This document shows positions 6,079 to 43,341 of a stretch of 64,000 nt of DNA, one piece after another. Under the pieces are notes generated by a model, which was not told the DNA's origin, did not search any database, and worked only from the letters and a program-made list of their open reading frames with translations. The DNA is taken from the IMG/VR virus record IMGVR_UViG_3300003375_000020, positions 1-64,000 of that record. One strand, given 5' to 3'. The translations under genes were made by a program, and so were the position numbers. Numbering within the stretch: position 1 is the stretch's first letter; the number at the start of each line of letters is the position of its first letter. Source of the stretch: a virus. Lineage: Duplodnaviria; Caudoviricetes.

Positions 6079-9000
6079 ATGGATAATAAAATATCTAATA
6101 TAATAGGTGCTGCTCTACCTCAATGGTTAAAAAAACAATTGTGGACTAGATACACAGAAAATTCATTGAAAAATAGATCTGATGCTAATTTAATATATCT
6201 AGCTAATAAAACAGCATGGATAAGAGTTGTATCTTCAGTTAATATAAATGGAAGTATAATAGATTCATCTCAGAATAAAGATCTTTCTTTACTTGGAGAT
6301 ATTCAATATTTTAGAGATACTTTGGGACTTACTAATATAAAAGAACCACAAGATTTAGCAAAACAATATATTTTATTTGGCGGAACATCTAAATATCTAG
6401 GAGCAAATAATCAAACTGCAAATTATCAATTAAGATCAGGAATAGATAATGATGGTTCATATGCTATGTTGGGAGAAAATGAAGTTAGTCAATATGGATA
6501 TCGTCCAATGCCTGGAATAACTGGTGCTCAGATAGAAACTCAAGGTAGATTAGGATCAGTTAGAATGGCAACTATAAATTTTAAAGTGTGGGATAAAGTT
6601 CAATTAGATATTATAGACACGCTTTATTTTAAATTAGGATATACTATATTAATAGAATGGGCAAACACTATTTATCCAGTGAAAGATGAAAAAAACGGAA
6701 ACGTAGAATATAATTCATCAGAATTTTTTTCTATTGATCCATTTGCCTTTGGTGCTACTAAAGAATCTATAAATGCTCAGATAGGAATTAATATGAGGAA
6801 ATCTGAAGGGAATTATGATGGTATGTTAGGAATGGTAACTAATTTTAATTTTACTTTTAATCAAGAAGGCGGATATGATTGCTCGATTAAAGTTATAGGA
6901 TTGGGAAGTTTAGCAGATACTATAAAAATTAATCATGCATCATCTTTAGAAGAAGTCGCTAAAGATCAAATTAAAAATTATGTAAATTTAATAGATAAAC
7001 TAGATGCAGAAAAAGCTTATAAAGAAGCTAAAGAAAAACAAGATTTACAAAATAAAATAATTGAAATACAGAATAATCAAAAAGTAGAAGATTTAAAAAG
7101 TAAATCTCCTGATTATATATCTTTAATTAGTCAAAATGCGAGTGCATATACATATTATATAGATTCTTATGGATTTGCAAACAATAAATTTAATTATAAT
7201 ATAGCGCCTTTTTCAAATTATGGAGATGTATATACTGTAGAAAAATTAAAAGCTATAATTGCAACTAACGAAACTTATTTAAAGGGTACTTCTGTAAAAT
7301 TAGACATAGCAAAAGCAAATTCAATCTTTGATGTAATAGTACCAGGCGCAACTATCGCTGATGCATTTTTTACATATGATAAATCCCCTAATCCAGTAAA
7401 AAATAAAAATTTTGGAGTTTATTCTTCTGGAAGTATAGAAGTAAATAAAACTAGTGATAGTAGAGCATTTTCTAAAATTGAATATATTAGTAATAATATT
7501 ACAAAAAAACAATTAGAGTTCGTAAATTTTTCAAAAAATCCAACATTCGCAATAACTTTTGTAATTGCAGGACCTATAGAAATTCAATCTTCTAATAATC
7601 AACCACTATTTCAAAAATATGTAGATGATAGAAAAAATTATACTAAGATTAAAGATACTGAAACAGATCCTCTAAAACGCGGCGATCCTAAATCTTTTGT
7701 AAAATTTAAAGACGGAGATATAATAGCAAAAAAATTATATGATGATCCTGGAACTGTAGAATTTATAAATAAAAAATTTGATTCTGATTACAACAATGGA
7801 AGTTCTATTAAAGAAGTGATTTTTGAAGTAATTAATAATCCTAATACTGAATGGAAAATAAACAATGTTAGTATTTCTTATAATGATTCGCAATTACCAA
7901 ATTTTAGTTTAAAAACAGATATAAAAATAGATGTTCCAGTATTTGCTTTAACAACAATATCAGCCACAAATCAATCGGGATACGCTAATGAATTAAAAGT
8001 AAATAAACAATCAACATTTATAACAGTATTTATTATTATTAATGATGTTGGATTAATAGCTGATATAATTTTTAATAGCGAAAAGCCTCAACAAAGTATA
8101 GATTTTGAAAAAGTTAAAATACAACAAGAAAATCAAAATCAGATTACTCATACGGAAATAAAAATACAAATACCAGATGAAGCAACTAAAACGCAGCAAG
8201 TTGAATCAGCTTTAAAAAATCAATCTAATATAGAATTAGTTCTAAGAGCAATTGAAATGTATTCTCTTAGTAAAAATTTAGCGCAATCTAATCAATCCAT
8301 TGATAATCCACAAATGTCAGCATTTAAATTAACTAGCGCTGATAATCTACTGTTTTTAAAAAATATATTTTCTAATGGAATTTATAGAGAATTTTTTTAT
8401 GATTTAATTTCTTCTAATGGTATTACAATAGATAATGCTTGGGGAAGTGGAGAAACATACATACAAAATTATAAAAAAAGTCCTGATAATGAAAAAATGC
8501 AAGTTCTTGCAAAATATGGATTTGCTAGTGCTATATTAGGAGGAAATGAACAGGGCATAGCAGGAGGTACTGAAGGAGTGCCTAAAGTAGATTACGAAAA
8601 ATTATTAGTTTCTTATGTTATTCCATATAATCTAAATGATTCTACCGCTGGAGATATAAGAATCGTGTATCCTACATATATACAACTAGGATTTTTACTT
8701 ATGATAATAAATGATCTTTGTACTATTTATGAAGCTGGTGAAGATGGAATATCTAAGCATCCAAAACCAATAGTTTATATAGATTATAATCCTGAAACTA
8801 ATAGATGTTTGAGTCAACAAGCTCAATTTAGTACCAATCCATTTGATTTCATGATAAAAAATCAATGTCATGTTCAAAAATATGCAGAACTTTTTCCATC
8901 TTCTATCATAGATAAAAATAATAATCAAATAGCAAAATCAAGTGAAGCTAATTCTACTCCTACAGATTTATTTGATGTGTCTAAAGATGATTACTATTCA

Positions 9001-10404
9001 AGTCAAATGCCTAATTTTAGAGAAGATAACAATTATAGTGGAAAACACATGAGAGTTTTAGTTAGTATAGAATATATTTTAAATATAATAAAAGAGTATA
9101 CTAAAAATGATGGAACTAATAGCGTTTATTTAAAACCATTTCTAGAGAGATTATGTAAAGATATGAATAATTATTTGGGAGCAATAAACGTGTTTAGGGT
9201 TGCTTATTATGATTCTTCTAATACGTTGTGTATAGTTGATGATCAGGTTCAACCTCTACCAAAAGGTCAAACGTCAGTAGATATAAGTAATAAAAATAAT
9301 AACGGCCCTGATTCAGATGAATTACCTTTATATGGACTTACATCTATAGCAAGATCTATTAGTATTCAAACAGAAGTTAGTAGTAAATTAGGGAGTATGA
9401 TCGCTATATCAGCTAATTCTAAAAGTGAAGATCAAGCTTCTATGGGTAAAAATGCAGGAAGTTTTGGATTTTATAATACTGCATATAAAGATAGATATAT
9501 ACCTACAAAAACTACTGCTACAGATAAAACACTAGATGATAAAAAAAATAAAATTGATAATAAATTAGATTCTCTAATTTCAGCTGCGACTATGTTTAAT
9601 AATACTATAAAAAGTATTTATGGAAGTAGAAATCCATCAAAAGATAACATAACGCAAGCTACAAATTTTTATATTGATAGTATAAATAAAGTACAAAACA
9701 ATAATCCAGCTACTAGAGCATCAGTAATGATTCCAGTATCTGTAACATTCACAACTGATGGAATTTCAGGATTTCATATGGGATCAGCATTTACCATTCC
9801 TGAAAAAATGTTACCATATACTTATTCTACTAGAAAAACTCCTGAAATGAGAGAGGGTAAAAAAGTGGGATTTGCATCTGTAGGCGTAAGTCATACTATT
9901 GCGAATAACACTTGGGAAACTTCTATAAAAGGACAAATGATATTTTTAAAAGATCCAAATGAATTTTCTGGAGAAGTATCTCAAATACAATATACTACAA
10001 AAAAACTTCCTTCTACAACCACGAATAATATAATACCAGATACATATGTATCAGCTGGTAATAATGGTATTAGAGCATTAGCTACTGTATATGGATATCC
10101 TGGAGATACTACTGGTGATCCAAATTCTTTAAAAGCGATAGGAAATAGAAATAATAAACTTATAGAAGGATCCTCGGTAGCTTTAAAAGAATCAACAGCG
10201 AAATATTTAAATATACTTTTAGGAGGTAAAGTTAAAGTTACATTTAAAGATAATACTACTGGTATATTTAGTTACGATGATACAATTCCTGAATATGATG
10301 CTGGAGTTAGAGTAGATTTTTATCAACCTAAGATAAAAGCAAATGGTAATATACTTACTGGATTTAAATATAATGGAGATAGTATAATCGTAGAAAAAGT
10401 ATAA
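6079..10404 (+). CDS. Baseplate hub / central spike protein with C-terminal 3D (DPBB) cell-wall hydrolase-like domain
   Basis: 1441 aa; RPMPGIT, LGYTILIEWAN and YDGMLGMVTNF hub motifs; C-terminal ATVYG...YDDT...RVDFY. Confidence 0.6.
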   Translation: MDNKISNIIGAALPQWLKKQLWTRYTENSLKNRSDANLIYLANKTAWIRVVSSVNINGSIIDSSQNKDLSLLGDIQYFRDTLGLTNIKEPQDLAKQYILFGGTSKYLGANNQTANYQLRSGIDNDGSYAMLGENEVSQYGYRPMPGITGAQIETQGRLGSVRMATINFKVWDKVQLDIIDTLYFKLGYTILIEWANTIYPVKDEKNGNVEYNSSEFFSIDPFAFGATKESINAQIGINMRKSEGNYDGMLGMVTNFNFTFNQEGGYDCSIKVIGLGSLADTIKINHASSLEEVAKDQIKNYVNLIDKLDAEKAYKEAKEKQDLQNKIIEIQNNQKVEDLKSKSPDYISLISQNASAYTYYIDSYGFANNKFNYNIAPFSNYGDVYTVEKLKAIIATNETYLKGTSVKLDIAKANSIFDVIVPGATIADAFFTYDKSPNPVKNKNFGVYSSGSIEVNKTSDSRAFSKIEYISNNITKKQLEFVNFSKNPTFAITFVIAGPIEIQSSNNQPLFQKYVDDRKNYTKIKDTETDPLKRGDPKSFVKFKDGDIIAKKLYDDPGTVEFINKKFDSDYNNGSSIKEVIFEVINNPNTEWKINNVSISYNDSQLPNFSLKTDIKIDVPVFALTTISATNQSGYANELKVNKQSTFITVFIIINDVGLIADIIFNSEKPQQSIDFEKVKIQQENQNQITHTEIKIQIPDEATKTQQVESALKNQSNIELVLRAIEMYSLSKNLAQSNQSIDNPQMSAFKLTSADNLLFLKNIFSNGIYREFFYDLISSNGITIDNAWGSGETYIQNYKKSPDNEKMQVLAKYGFASAILGGNEQGIAGGTEGVPKVDYEKLLVSYVIPYNLNDSTAGDIRIVYPTYIQLGFLLMIINDLCTIYEAGEDGISKHPKPIVYIDYNPETNRCLSQQAQFSTNPFDFMIKNQCHVQKYAELFPSSIIDKNNNQIAKSSEANSTPTDLFDVSKDDYYSSQMPNFREDNNYSGKHMRVLVSIEYILNIIKEYTKNDGTNSVYLKPFLERLCKDMNNYLGAINVFRVAYYDSSNTLCIVDDQVQPLPKGQTSVDISNKNNNGPDSDELPLYGLTSIARSISIQTEVSSKLGSMIAISANSKSEDQASMGKNAGSFGFYNTAYKDRYIPTKTTATDKTLDDKKNKIDNKLDSLISAATMFNNTIKSIYGSRNPSKDNITQATNFYIDSINKVQNNNPATRASVMIPVSVTFTTDGISGFHMGSAFTIPEKMLPYTYSTRKTPEMREGKKVGFASVGVSHTIANNTWETSIKGQMIFLKDPNEFSGEVSQIQYTTKKLPSTTTNNIIPDTYVSAGNNGIRALATVYGYPGDTTGDPNSLKAIGNRNNKLIEGSSVALKESTAKYLNILLGGKVKVTFKDNTTGIFSYDDTIPEYDAGVRVDFYQPKIKANGNILTGFKYNGDSIIVEKV

Positions 10405-34575: not shown

Positions 34576-35094
34576 GTGAAAACATTATACGCATTCGACT
34601 TGGATGATACGCTAATAACTTCTAAATCATTAGTGATTGTTAGAAATAATACTACGGGAAAGACTAAAAAATTGAATGCTGCGCAATATGCTACGTACGA
34701 ACCAAAATTGGGAGATAAAGTAGATTTCAGCCAATTCGACAATTTGAATGATCCAGAGATCATAAAAAAGAATTTTGATCTTTTCTCACAGATATTAAAA
34801 AAGACAGTTACATTAAAGAACTCGAAAACTATTATCTTAACAGCAAGGACACCTAAAATAAAGAGCGATGTGTACTCTTTACTTAAATCTAAAGGTTTAC
34901 CATCTTTAAAAATACACGCTGTAGAGAGCTCAGATCCCATGGCTAAAGTAAACATTATCCAGCAATATATAGACTCAGGATATGATCGGGTGCGTTTTTA
35001 TGACGATTCCCCAAAGAACATACAGGCCGTGAATGCGATGAAGAAAGAAAATCCCAGTGTAAATCTTACCTCAAAATTGATATCATCTCACTAA
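34576..35094 (+). CDS. HAD-family phosphatase (RNA-repair/PNK-phosphatase-like)
   Basis: AFDLDDTL, ILTAR and FYDDSPKN motifs; GTG start. Confidence 0.75.
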   Translation: MKTLYAFDLDDTLITSKSLVIVRNNTTGKTKKLNAAQYATYEPKLGDKVDFSQFDNLNDPEIIKKNFDLFSQILKKTVTLKNSKTIILTARTPKIKSDVYSLLKSKGLPSLKIHAVESSDPMAKVNIIQQYIDSGYDRVRFYDDSPKNIQAVNAMKKENPSVNLTSKLISSH

Positions 35095-35977: not shown

Positions 35978-36583
35978 ATGCCAAGAGTACAACATAAATA
36001 TCATTTTATATATAAAACTACTAATTTAAAAAATGGTAAATTTTATATAGGAATGCATTCAACTTCTAATTTAGATGATGGATATTTGGGTTCTGGAGAT
36101 AAATTAAGAAGATCTATAAGAAAATACGGAAAAGAAAATTTTAAATTAGAAATTTTAGAGTATTTTGAAAATAGAGAGTTATTATCTAAAAGAGAAAAAG
36201 AATTAATTAATGAAGATGTATTGAAAGATCCAATGTGCATGAATTTAAAAGTTGGTGGAGAAGGTGGATGGCATGTATATGCTAATAAAGCATTTAAAGA
36301 AAAATTAAAAGATATAAAATATAAAGAAAATTTTTCTAGAATATGTATAGAAAGAAATAAAAAATGTTTTGAACTAGGTATTATTAAATCCTGGAATAAA
36401 ACATATGATTGGACTGATAAGTATCATACACCAGAGACCATTAAAAAAATGAAAAATTCTAAAATAGGTCATGGTAAAGGAGAATTGAATTCTCAGTTTG
36501 GAACTTTTTGGATAACTGATGGAAAGTATAATAAAAAAACAAAATATGAAATTCCTGAAGGGTGGTACAAAGGTCGCGTATAA
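35978..36583 (+). mobile_element. Free-standing Seg-like GIY-YIG homing endonuclease
   Basis: FIYKTTNLKNGKFYIGMH, YLGSG and YNLKVGGEG-like motifs; NUMOD3-like HTPETIKKM. Confidence 0.85.
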
Positions 36584-37885: not shown

Positions 37886-37954
37886 GTCGAGTTGGTGCAA
37901 TGGTAGCATACCTGATTCCAAACCAGTTGATGAGGGTTCGAATCCTACGGTGGG
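37886..37954 (+). pseudogene. Degenerate tRNA-Trp(CCA)
   Basis: TTCCAAA loop and TTCGAAT T-loop; several stem mismatches. Confidence 0.55.
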
Positions 37955-38603: not shown

Positions 38604-38676
38604 GGCGAGTTGTCCGAGTGGATAAAGGCACAGCACTGCAAACGCTGTTACGTGAGTTCAATTCTCACCTTAACCT
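38604..38676 (+). pseudogene. Degenerate tRNA-Cys(GCA)
   Basis: CTGCAAA loop; T arm intact; 3 acceptor mismatches. Confidence 0.6.
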
Positions 38677-40256: not shown

Positions 40257-40333
40257 CGAAAGTGGGGCTGCTAGGCTGTGGCCGCTGGATTGTCACTCCA
40301 GATATCAGGCGAGTTCGAATCTCGTACTTTCGG
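40257..40333 (+). tRNA. tRNA-Asp(GTC)
   Basis: CGAAAGT / ACTTTCG-G73; CTGGA-TTGTCAC-TCCAG. Confidence 0.85.
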
Positions 40334-40407
40334 CAGAATGTTACCTATTGGAATAACCAGCGCATGACGTGGTTGGCGTCCGACTTGGAGAGTAGGTAAT
40401 TTTTCAT

Positions 40408-40490: not shown

Positions 40491-40560
40491 TGCGAGGAAG
40501 TGAATAGGTATCACGCTAGTCTCATAAGCTAGAGAACCGGATCAATACCGGCGATCGCAA
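40491..40560 (+). tRNA. Atypical tRNA(CAT), fMet-like body
   Basis: CTAGT-CTCATAA-GCTAG; T loop ATCAATA; two acceptor mismatches. Confidence 0.6.
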
Positions 40561-40783
40561 CTAAAATTTTGCTAGAAAGTAAATGAGTGATGTAGTTATA
40601 GAAGTGTAAAGACTATCGCATTACAGTAGTATCAGCTACGTTCATTTATTAGTATAGGTAGTTAGCTTGGGCGGTTGGCTGAAACGAAGTAATTCGTAGT
40701 CATATTAATATAAGGATAGGTTAAATTCCTATACGGTTCTTTCTAACTTACTACACTCTGATAAGTGTACAAAATTTTAAAAT

Positions 40784-40855
40784 CGCATTATGGTGAAAAG
40801 GCTATCACAGAGTCCTCATAAGGCTTTATTCCAATTTCGAGTATTGGTAATGCGA
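40784..40855 (+). tRNA. tRNA(CAT): Met
   Basis: CGCATTA / TAATGCG-A; GAGTC-CTCATAA-GGCTT. Confidence 0.85.
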
Positions 40856-41412: not shown

Positions 41413-41616
41413 ATGATTTGGTTAATTGAACTGATTTGGTTATTAAGTATTGTATATGTCATTCATAGAATGATAGGAAGTAATAATAAAAAATCTTTAG
41501 ATGGTGTTATAGGAAACACGCCAGGATTTGATGCAATAATATTTGTATGGGGAGCACCATTTTTTGCATTAGTTGATTTAGGTGCAAGATGGATTTCACA
41601 CATGAAGCATAAATAA
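41413..41616 (+). CDS. Small two-TM membrane protein
   Basis: Two hydrophobic helices. Confidence 0.5.
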   Translation: MIWLIELIWLLSIVYVIHRMIGSNNKKSLDGVIGNTPGFDAIIFVWGAPFFALVDLGARWISHMKHK

Positions 41617-41620
41617 AAAT

Positions 41621-41650
41621 TGTTGAGTGGCGAAATTGGCAGACGCACCT
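41621..41650 (+). pseudogene. Orphan 5' third (acceptor strand + D arm) of a tRNA-like gene
   Basis: TGTTGAG-TG-GCG-AAATTGGCAGA-CGC-ACC, then the endonuclease ORF. Confidence 0.7.
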
Positions 41651-41684
41651 TTTTGTTAATTTATAATATTTATCATAAAGAGGT

Positions 41685-42350
41685 ATGAGTGCTATAATTT
41701 ATGAAACGGTAAATTTATTTAACAAAAAGAATAACATACTTCCTTATAGGTATATTGGAAGTGATCAACACAACAAACCTAGCTATTTAGGAAGCAGTAA
41801 AGAACTATGTGTAGATATAAAAAAACTAGGAGTAGATCAATTTGAAAAAAGAACTCTTTGTGAATTTAAAGAGGAGATTTCTAATATACTGCTAAGAAAA
41901 ATAGAATCTCAAATTCAAACCTATTTAGGAGTAGCAAAAGATGAAACTTATTACAACAGGACAAATAGCTCTCTTAGAGGTTATGAGGAAACTGATGAAC
42001 AGAGAGAAGCTAGAAAAGTTAACTTGTTAAAGAATAGAAAAATTTGGTGGGAATCTCTAACTGAAGAACAAAGGGAAGAAGAAAAAAAGAAAAGTGGAAA
42101 GTTTTTAGCCGCTTATAATAGATCAACTAAAGGAAAAACTTATGAGGAGATTTTTGGAGCAGAAAAAGCAAAGCTTAAAAAAGAGAAACACTCAGGAGGC
42201 AACAACAGTAATGCTAAAAAAGTATTACATAAGCCTTCAAATAAAATTTTTAATTCTGCTTTGGAGGCAATGAACTTTTTTAGCATAAAAAGATATGGAA
42301 GTTTGTATACAAGAATTAAAAAAGGTGAATTTGAATTTTTAAAAAGCTAA
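41685..42350 (+). mobile_element. Seg-like GIY-YIG homing endonuclease
   Basis: IIYETVN...RYIGSD...YLGSS; YYNRTN; KGKTYEEIFG; C-terminal HTH-like region. Confidence 0.8.
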
Positions 42351-42354
42351 ACAC

Positions 42355-42509
42355 TGTTTCCTGGCGAAACGCTGAAAAGCTTGGCAGACGCGCTCCTCTT
42401 GTCTCGAGGGTGTGGAGCAACTAATAAAGATTGGATAATGGGTTGACCACAAAGCGCGCAATGTCCTCTTCCTAAAGTCCACGTCATGGTTCGAATCCAT
42501 GGGAAACAG
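42355..42509 (+). ncRNA. 155-nt tRNA-like RNA with extra D-loop hairpin and about 74-nt variable arm
   Basis: TGTTTCC / GGAAACA acceptor; GCG/CGC D stem; TCCTC-TTGTCTC-GAGGG; CATGG-TTCGAAT-CCATG. Confidence 0.75.
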
Positions 42510-42876: not shown

Positions 42877-43341
42877 ATGGAAAGGCAATTTAGAACATTA
42901 GAAAAGCGCCAACCAATTGATTTGATTCCGTATGTTAAAGATCATTTAATAAAATTCCCAGATTCTGAGATTTTAGTTGGATGTGATTCTCAAAATCAAG
43001 GAAGAAAAACTATTTACGCAGTAGTAATTGGTATGTACAACCCAGGTAAAGGAGCTCATGTATTATTTGCGATGTTCGACGAACCAAGAGTAAGATTGAC
43101 TGAAAACTCAGTTAGATTATTAAATGAAGTTTGGTATTCAGTAGAAGTAGCAGAAAAATTAAAATCAGAATTAGGAATAATTGCAAAATGGATTGATATA
43201 GATTTAAATCCAGATCCTAAATGGCAGTCTAATAAAGCATTAACTAACGCAGTTGGTATCGTAACTAGCATGGGTTACCATGTTAGACACAAAGGACTTT
43301 CTCCAGTTATGACTTATGCTGCTGACAAATTAGTTAAATAA
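42877..43341 (+). CDS. YkuK/DUF458-like RNase H-fold protein
   Basis: ILVGCDSQ, RLLNEVWYS, IDIDLN and YAADK motifs. Confidence 0.8.
   Translation: MERQFRTLEKRQPIDLIPYVKDHLIKFPDSEILVGCDSQNQGRKTIYAVVIGMYNPGKGAHVLFAMFDEPRVRLTENSVRLLNEVWYSVEVAEKLKSELGIIAKWIDIDLNPDPKWQSNKALTNAVGIVTSMGYHVRHKGLSPVMTYAADKLVK

Follow-up and report, generated by a model that had tools for sequence, protein, structure and literature searches.

What is an RNA with the outline of a transfer RNA and a giant variable arm doing among the tRNA genes of a phage? The question is raised by positions 42355-42509 of a 64,000-nucleotide (nt) stretch of Caudoviricetes DNA (positions 1 to 64,000 of IMG/VR virus record IMGVR_UViG_3300003375_000020; this whole stretch is referred to as the window), where a first-pass annotation, made from the letters and their open reading frames (ORFs), had described a non-decoding tRNA mimic that might serve as a decoy, as a tether of the Y RNA kind or as a ribosome-binding RNA. 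We find that 42355-42509 is a phage-borne member of an uncatalogued tRNA-shaped RNA family of Bacteroidota and their large phages, and we have very little doubt that this family is real and conserved. Standard tools pass over the locus: ARAGORN called 22 tRNAs in the window, none of them at 42355-42509, and Rfam 15 identified a transfer-messenger RNA (tmRNA) and 20 tRNAs in the window with nothing at the locus, the tRNA model RF00005 included, even at E≤10. At a permissive threshold Rfam gave only two opposite-strand matches there (rimP leader and HOTAIR_3), which we rejected as chance. When 50,697 GenBank phage records were searched with blastn, the 2.4 kb context matched ordinary tRNAs only and the RNA alone matched nothing. 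The family is absent from Rfam 15, and no description of it was found in the literature searched; an IMG/VR candidate RNA, DNAVirus_1850, overlaps one tRNA-Asp call (Fremin et al. 2023, PMC10690425) and might be a member of the family.

The family was assembled starting from an exact 27-mer, which led to two near-identical viral contigs; loci anchored on the proteins next to the gene, searched with nhmmer, then gave diverged copies, from which we built the scan pattern GTCT.G.GGG ... GGTTGACCAC ... GGTTCGA. This pattern matched at least 118 contigs in IMG/VR and, among bacterial genomes, at least 120. The comparisons below use the 98 distinct viral and 109 distinct bacterial sequences among the matches listed, so that totals are at least these, and the labels 'viral' and 'bacterial' are those of the source collections. 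Nearly all of the bacterial records listed are named Bacteroidota, i.e. Chitinophaga isolates (one a complete chromosome), Aquirufa and Flammeovirga, together with metagenome-assembled genomes of Saprospiraceae, Cyclobacteriaceae, Cytophagaceae and Ohtaekwangia; judging by these carriers, the most probable host of the phage is a member of the Bacteroidota. A covariance model of the family (R1), which has the window sequence among its seed, scored the window copy at 128.7 bits (E 3e-33, model positions 1-155), a value that is not independent of the seed, and relatives outside the seed that the model found in genomes scored 86-138 bits. When R1 was used without the word pattern, a strong full-length member was present in about 14 of 151 sampled Bacteroidota genomes. 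Also apart from the word pattern, the apical word GGGUUGACCAC was present in all nine of the long members that R1 found in protein-anchored loci, and rare variants of it occur among 17 bacterial members found by R1. The window copy has all of the family marks (U1-A72, G2-C71, G73, an anticodon-position loop that fits YYGUCUM, and apical GGGUUGACCAC), of which G73 is present in 206 of 207 sequences.

The evidence that the shape is maintained comes from covariation. We aligned 96 viral sequences with MAFFT, without fitting the alignment to any structure, and the RNAalifold prediction made on it contained 34 pairs, 26 of them with compensatory changes. Standard pairs filled 97.3% of cells in these 96 homologues vs 75.9% after shuffling, the covariation score was 0.605 vs 0.187 for shuffled and 0.08-0.17 for slid controls, and none of 500 shuffles reached the observed pairing or covariation values. 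All four tRNA arms covary: compensatory changes were seen in 7/7 pairs of the acceptor stem (99.9% of cells pair), in 2/3 pairs of the D stem, in one pair of the anticodon-position stem (in 55 sequences; 100% of cells pair) and in 3/5 pairs of the T stem (100% of cells pair), with G18, G19, A14 and A21 conserved in the same alignment. The helices of the variable arm, at four to six in the numbering of the prediction, have compensatory changes in 13/14 pairs.

The resulting RNA (Table 1) has the core of a tRNA cloverleaf, with 7/5 acceptor and T stems, U8, A14, G18G19 and a GTTCRA T loop; U8 and G9 are the two nucleotides between the acceptor and D stems, U1-A72, G2-C71 and U3-A70 are conserved across the family, and CCA is not encoded, the G73 at 42509 being followed directly by CA. 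Its D loop is of the class II, Leu-like kind (AAA ... UUGGCAGA), broken by an inserted hairpin, and its 7-nt anticodon-position loop, TTGTCTC at 42399-42405 (family consensus YYGUCUM), places G34, U35 and C36 before U37 and C38. The first-pass annotation, which had noted perfect acceptor and T arms, a Leu-type D arm and a pyrimidine at 37, was exact to the base. Anticodon and T stems are separated by 74 nt, of which 71 nt make up the arm proper. The arm begins with V1a, a helix of 4 base pairs (bp; GTGG/CCAC), followed by a 4-nt 5' bulge and by V1b, a 3-bp helix of ACT (42420-42422) with AGT (42476-42478) that emerged from the family consensus; a conserved asymmetric internal loop then leads to V2, 7-8 bp of AAGA..GGATA with TGTCC-TCTT, which ends in the apical loop. 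The helices first proposed for the arm hold for GTGG/CCAC and for AAGA/TCTT and GGATA/TGTCC, which together form V2, but the ACT/AGT helix had been missed, and it uses the U that had been assigned to GTGGA/TCCAC.

Table 1. Positions of the RNA, its elements and two neighbouring features in the window.
Feature	Position	Strand	Description
Whole tRNA-like RNA gene	42355-42509	+	155 nt, tRNA positions 1-73
Acceptor stem	42355-42361 with 42502-42508	+	TGTTTCC with GGAAACA, 7 bp, then G73 at 42509
D arm	42364-42391	+	3-bp stem, GCG 42364-42366 with CGC 42389-42391
D-loop inserted hairpin	42371-42380	+	GCU-GAAA-AGC, GNRA hairpin, phage-type feature
Anticodon-position arm	42394-42410	+	5-bp stem, TCCTC 42394-42398 with GAGGG 42406-42410
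Giant variable arm	42412-42482	+	V1a, bulge, V1b, internal loop, V2, apical loop
Near-invariant apical word	42440-42450	+	GGGUUGACCAC, 11 nt, includes GAC, opens the apical loop
Apical palindrome	42454-42459	+	GCGCGC between A's (AAAGCGCGCAA), possible site of kissing-loop dimerisation
T arm	42485-42501	+	CATGG-TTCGAAT-CCATG, canonical T loop
Orphan fragment, 5' part of another allele of the RNA gene	41621-41649	+	Acceptor TGTTGAG, hairpin-less D arm, two anticodon-stem bases
221-amino-acid ORF between orphan fragment and complete gene	41685-42350	+	Possible Seg-like GIY-YIG homing endonuclease

Set beside the class II tRNAs (tRNA-Leu, tRNA-Ser and tRNA-Tyr; RF00005), the RNA shares the 7/5 stems, U8, G9, a 3-bp D stem, a Leu-like D loop (AAAUUGGCAGA), G18G19, the canonical T loop, a helical arm at the variable position and a place in a tRNA array. 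It differs from them in the length of that arm, 71 nt in the window and up to about 130 nt in bacteria compared with 13-21 nt, in the three helices and invariant sequence that the arm carries, in its pyrimidine at position 37 and frequent C at position 33, in combining G73 with a GUC 'anticodon' and in the extra hairpin in its D loop; neither ARAGORN nor RF00005 picks it up. Across the long-armed family the arm is 70-130 nt long on a fixed three-helix plan, and the whole RNA is 140-210 nt long. Many bacterial copies (e.g. L350-L353, L356, L357, L362 and L363) have an extra hairpin 5' of the apical word, flanked by repeated CCGAC(C), as in AGCCGAC ... GGCCGACCAGGGUUGACCAC, and in these the arms extend to about 130 nt. 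Some genomes have two or three tandem copies of the RNA (L216, L232, G042, G146).

Whether such an RNA could decode depends in part on its anticodon-position loop. A canonical decoder has a 7-nt loop with U33 and a purine at 37; the window copy has U33 but U37, all members read have a pyrimidine, U or C, at position 37, and the 74 nt between the anticodon and T stems exceed the canonical class II limit of about 21 nt. C33 was found in 58/98 phage copies vs 6/109 bacterial copies, with U33 in 103/109 bacterial copies as well as in the window. An ordinary tRNA-Asp(GUC) is present besides the giant-armed RNA wherever this was examined, i.e. at 40257-40334 of the window, in L001, a close relative, and in each of three carrier genomes (3, 4 and 1 copies). 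Because of the pyrimidine at 37, the C33 of many phage copies and the normal tRNA-Asp alongside, the RNA is unlikely to be an ordinary decoder, and we are fairly confident that routine decoding is not its function, in agreement with the first-pass description of a non-decoding mimic. The contrary view, that it is a working decoder, i.e. a long-armed tRNA that reads GAY codons and is charged with Asp or, as an allo-tRNA-like missense tRNA, with Ser, possibly inefficiently or with frameshifting, strikes us as unlikely: the full tRNA core, the 7-nt loop, GUC at 34-36 and the U33 of the window and of most bacterial copies speak for it, whereas the pyrimidine at 37 throughout, the C33 of 59% of phage copies and the coexisting tRNA-Asp speak against it, an 11-nt invariant word and a fixed arm plan are not needed for decoding, and both ARAGORN and the Rfam tRNA model reject the RNA.

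Charging of the RNA is a separate matter. The main Asp identity marks of E. coli are G34, U35, C36, C38, G73 and G2-C71, and the RNA retains them. Seryl-tRNA synthetase (SerRS) reads G73 plus a long arm (PMC7609411), features that are likewise present in the RNA; this SerRS identity set also counts in favour of a decoder, as does the fact that GUC is among the commonest anticodons of the Ser-type allo-tRNAs (PMC5389517). Allo-tRNAs (Mukai et al. 2017, PMC5389517), some of which occur in phages and for which roles in missense suppression and/or as regulatory non-coding RNAs have been proposed, are the nearest published kind of RNA. Like them, the RNA has a long arm, the Ser-type G73 and a non-Ser anticodon. 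Unlike them, with their 8/4 or 9/3 acceptor and T stems, it has 7/5 stems, each supported by covariation, and its arm is longer than theirs, which are of ordinary class II length; the text of that paper as searched reports no allo-tRNAs from Bacteroidota.

A different explanation for the loop is that the apical GAC pairs with the molecule's own GUC, locking it closed and hiding the 'anticodon', as had been suggested when the locus was first described. In its favour, both words are near-invariant in long-armed members; in addition, bacterial L349 has GAU opposite GUC (loop CUGUCCC), with which wobble pairing would still be possible, and on rough geometry the length of the arm and an internal loop that could bend it do not forbid the contact. 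However, short-armed members keep the loop, as YUGUCUC, in the absence of GAC. In phages a short form of 106-107 nt (L068:5045-5151, L069:6126-6232, L070:5703-5808, L071:1137-1242 and L073:6196-6301) has the same core and the UUGUCUC loop, with a plain 10-bp hairpin lacking GGGUUGACCAC for an arm, and the bacterial short-armed members L354 and L359-L361 keep a GUC-type loop with no GAC. Members found by the model only include loops CUUUCUC (UUC, with no apex motif) and CGGUCUC, no compensatory double change was seen, and a scan for middle-base variants of the apical GAC found none, so that it provided no covariation test. Such a lock would have 3 bp at most, while the conserved apex word has 11 nt and U37 is conserved too, which points to recognition by something else; we consider the lock improbable, and read the conserved apex word and U37 as likely signs of recognition by an external partner.

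The short members also bear on the idea of the arm as an intron or a mobile insertion whose removal would leave a normal tRNA. In its favour, this gene often carries insertions, such as D-loop hairpins and further hairpins at the apex, and a homing-endonuclease-like ORF may target the locus. The arm, however, lies at the variable-loop position and not at 37/38, is too small for a group I intron and without an Rfam intron or ribozyme match, and holds the most conserved sequence of the family; the core is that of a class II tRNA, and the short members form a continuum with ordinary long (class II) arms. Removal of the arm is thus very improbable. The first-pass annotation had itself allowed that the arm might be spliced out, or be unconserved and unstructured: the second is contradicted by its conserved, structured and covarying helices, and the first is disfavoured by an indirect argument from the same conserved structure.

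We give almost no credence to the proposal that the RNA is a tether for Ro60/Rsr of the YrlA type. The resemblance on which it was based is at the level of words (GUC... and UUGAC) to the Ro-binding helix, and YrlA is, like the RNA, a non-coding mimic of tRNA (PMC4201824). The arrangement is nevertheless permuted, as the ends of YrlA make the Ro-binding stem whereas those of the RNA pair into an acceptor stem, and the two words belong to different hairpin loops instead of sharing a bulged helix. At E≤10 nothing in Rfam matched the RNA, the Y RNA, YrlA and tRNA models included, and the TROVE domain (PF05731) that marks Ro60 was absent from the phage record (G000, about 53% complete) and from three carrier genomes, while D. 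radiodurans and B. thetaiotaomicron were positive as controls.

The genomic setting of the bacterial copies was informative about function. In 77 of 118 bacterial loci a gene for a 155-amino-acid regulator of the Lrp/AsnC family is divergently transcribed about 159 nt away and is followed by sufB, sufC and sufS-type genes (sufBCDS); the other side is variable, with an AMP-binding enzyme, TrmB and peroxiredoxin among the downstream genes. In bacteria (Chitinophagales, Cytophagales, Saprospiraceae and relatives) the RNA gene has the look of a housekeeping gene that stands alone in conserved synteny and does not resemble a gene of a defence island, and this synteny weighs against a pure decoy role. 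As a decoy or inhibitor, the RNA would occupy host nucleases or toxins that attack tRNA-Asp or tRNAs with GUN anticodons, as a form of counter-defence. That it lies in a phage tRNA array, that the window also has a tmRNA and a polynucleotide-kinase-like gene, that its loop has a YGU, a type of motif recognised by some anticodon nucleases, and that phage copies have drifted further from a decoding shape are all in keeping with such a role; that bacteria retain one conserved copy in the chromosome, at a locus of the housekeeping type, and that a decoy would have no need of an elaborate conserved arm, are not, and we regard it as distinctly improbable.

Phage copies appear to have a long history of their own. 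On a FastTree tree of 206 sequences the label phage or bacterium changes 4 times vs 68 times for shuffled labels (the sequences are short), and because there are so few changes we take the phage copies to be old lineages and not recent captures. In related phages the RNA gene is 3-6 nt from the flanking tRNAs, and from this closeness the RNA is presumably processed like them. Neither the catalytic domains of class II aminoacyl-tRNA synthetases nor a CCA-adding enzyme was found in the phage record, which is about 53% complete.

Comparison of the two sets revealed that the phage RNAs have been remodelled in more than their frequent C33. A hairpin is inserted in the D loop of 65/98 phage copies vs 2/109 bacterial copies (the orphan fragment at 41621-41649 is without it), and the U-rich linker that follows GACCAC in bacteria is replaced in phage copies by a perfect palindrome. 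An apex palindrome of at least 6 nt is present in 92/98 phage vs 19/109 bacterial copies, and one of at least 8 nt in 77/98 vs 10/109; the window copy combines the D-loop hairpin and U33 with the palindrome GCGCGC. There are 27 different phage palindromes (e.g. GCGCGC, AGCCGGCU, GCUUGCAAGC, GCUAGCUAGC and UGCAUGCA). Shuffling of the phage segments gave a palindrome of at least 6 nt in 16% of cases and of at least 8 nt in 3%, while the bacterial rate is no higher than chance (23% in bacterial shuffles). As a control we looked at the variable arms of class II tRNAs from the same phage loci, of which 6/91 had a palindrome; this rules out palindromes as a general mutational habit of hairpins in these phages.

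The form of the palindromes would suit a sequence which pairs with a second copy of itself. Forty-five of them are only 6-8 nt long (e.g. GCGCGC, AGCCGGCU), too short to fold as hairpins, and in longer palindromes the four bases at the centre, the place of a hairpin loop, are self-complementary too, without exception. Where a D-loop insert is palindromic as well, its sequence usually differs from that of the apex. The median self-duplex energy predicted for the apex segment was -16.9 kcal/mol for phage, -2.0 for bacterial and -4.8 for shuffled phage sequences, and that of the window segment AAAGCGCGCAA was -13.9 kcal/mol. If two G-U pairs are counted, the invariant GGUUGACC is self-complementary too (-12.0 kcal/mol as a self-duplex), but its invariance argues for specific recognition over mere self-pairing. 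The dimerisation site (DIS) of HIV-1 is a kissing loop of this kind, with a purine-flanked GCGCGC loop (AAGCGCGCA), and natural RNAs that assemble with themselves include phi29 pRNA, ROOL and GOLLD. In common with DIS-type sites, the phage RNAs have a GC-rich, purine-flanked apical palindrome of 6-12 nt, i.e. a self-complementary hexamer or longer sequence in an unpaired loop, in which self-complementarity is kept while the sequence varies; and in common with the setting of the self-assembling RNAs, they occur in phage genomes near tRNAs. They differ from DIS-type sites in that the carrier is tRNA-shaped, that dimers are predicted from duplex energies and that the bacterial members lack the palindrome. 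We tentatively suggest, at somewhat less than even odds, that phage RNAs use these loops to pair into kissing dimers, or into larger assemblies in copies with two palindromes.

A bolder extension, which we consider rather unlikely, is that the phage versions are self-assembling RNAs in which one or two orthogonal self-complementary loops (at the arm apex in nearly all copies, and in the D-loop hairpin of about half of the copies with such a hairpin) build dimers, chains or rings in the infected cell that cluster the partner of GGGUUGACCAC, the bacterial monomeric ancestor being a tRNA mimic, charged or not, in housekeeping control of translation. If self-assembly were true, the RNA would be a tRNA-derived counterpart of the RNA-only ROOL and GOLLD assemblies.

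Taken as a whole, the picture that we favour, with a probability of roughly 60%, is one of tRNA-like maturation, a docking arm and dimers in phages. The RNA would share a transcript with the tRNAs beside it and pass through tRNA maturation (RNase P, 3' trimming and CCA addition). It might then be aminoacylated, since the Asp identity marks are kept together with the G73 and long arm that SerRS reads, although routine decoding would not be its use. The conserved arm would act as a docking domain for a conserved partner. In phage lineages a hairpin would have been added in the D loop, U33 often lost and the linker after GACCAC swapped for a variable palindrome, so that the AAAGCGCGCAA palindrome of the window may allow a loop-loop (kissing) duplex to form between two phage RNAs. 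We class the RNA among the tRNA-derived non-coding RNAs.

Several points weigh against this picture. No conserved protein partner adjoins the phage copies, the top cluster of neighbouring proteins being short ORFs that abut RNA or tRNA genes. GTCT and GGTTGACCAC were imposed by the search pattern, so that their invariance in the large sets is partly built in. The folding energy of the window RNA as a single sequence is no better than that of shuffles (z = -0.71); it is the comparison with relatives that sets the RNA apart from chance. G10 is A in most bacterial copies, and in a few members GUC is replaced by UUC or GGU. A U at position 37 reduces the efficiency of decoding without forbidding it, and aspartyl-tRNA synthetase, a class II enzyme, approaches the tRNA from its variable-loop side, where a 71-nt arm might block it. 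Of the 65 D-loop inserts only 35 are palindromic over at least 8 nt. Finally, the palindromes could serve otherwise, as a local hairpin (in the cases of 10-12 nt) or as a signal at the level of DNA.

The consequences differ with the role. Charging without decoding would make the RNA a new case in which the tRNA machinery is put to a different use; binding to the ribosome or to a synthetase would make it a new regulator in a phylum with unusual translation control; and the palindromic loops of the phage copies offer a testable case of natural RNA self-assembly on a tRNA scaffold. The giant-armed RNA has a fixed chromosomal neighbourhood across several Bacteroidota orders and is maintained independently in large phages. 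The family is a mark of phages with Bacteroidota hosts, as well as a blind spot of tRNA annotation tools.

Upstream of the gene, the window may bear traces of a mobile element. R1 gave a weak match of 20.9 bits at 41621-41725, over the orphan fragment. In the near-identical relative L001 a 67-amino-acid ORF lies directly before the RNA gene; in the window this ORF ends at 41616 and the orphan fragment comes next, and L001 is without the insertion of the 221-amino-acid ORF. The N-terminus of the latter resembles T4 SegB (32% identity over 68 amino acids, pairwise E 0.001, a weak similarity), and no Pfam or PHROG match to it was found. The arrangement at 41685-42350 fits a Seg-like mobile endonuclease that would target the RNA gene.

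Phage T4 offers a parallel. Its tRNA cluster encodes the stable species 1 and 2 RNAs (rnaC/rnaD). In T4_ev151 (L214:3867-3958, in the gap after tRNA-Arg), within the region to which these stable RNAs are said to map, we found a tRNA-like element that lacks annotation; it has an acceptor-type stem of 7 bp and a perfect T arm, and adjoins the SegB gene. Like the RNA of the window, it combines a tRNA-like acceptor stem and T arm in a longer RNA beside phage tRNAs, with a Seg-type homing endonuclease adjoining; unlike that RNA, it has neither an anticodon-type arm nor a conserved giant arm. Homology between the two was considered and rejected, as R1 gives the T4 element 14 bits only and there is no sequence relationship. 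The T4 element is not known to have a bacterial counterpart.

The tmRNA of the phage (35434-35934; Rfam 70.7 bits) spans 501 nt vs the 374 positions of the model and so carries insertions; beside it are a homing-endonuclease-like ORF (35978-36583) and the polynucleotide-kinase-like ORF (34576-35094). The tRNA array as called has no tRNAs for Cys, Phe or Trp, which L001 partly has, and 40560-40784 within the array carries no call. Weak Rfam tRNA matches at 37893-37948, 38604-38676 and 40491-40560 (29-31 bits, at the gathering score) were not called by ARAGORN. Directly downstream of the array is a gene for a 154-amino-acid RNaseH_like protein (42877-43341; PF04308, E 4e-16; phrog_11311), which is kept next to the array in 14 related viral contigs.

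A second tRNA-like family, of which the window has no copy, was found in the arrays of related phages, with six copies in L096 (e.g. 8619-8747 and 10114-10245) and others at L009:2085-2196, L017:5198-5324, L019:3998-4100, L020:4200-4302 and L026:9021-9223. In its members a conserved acceptor stem (AGUCAGG/CCUGACU), a D arm of class II and a T arm enclose 40-150 nt of hypervariable sequence in which no anticodon arm is evident, so that they look like a tRNA scaffold with variable cargo.

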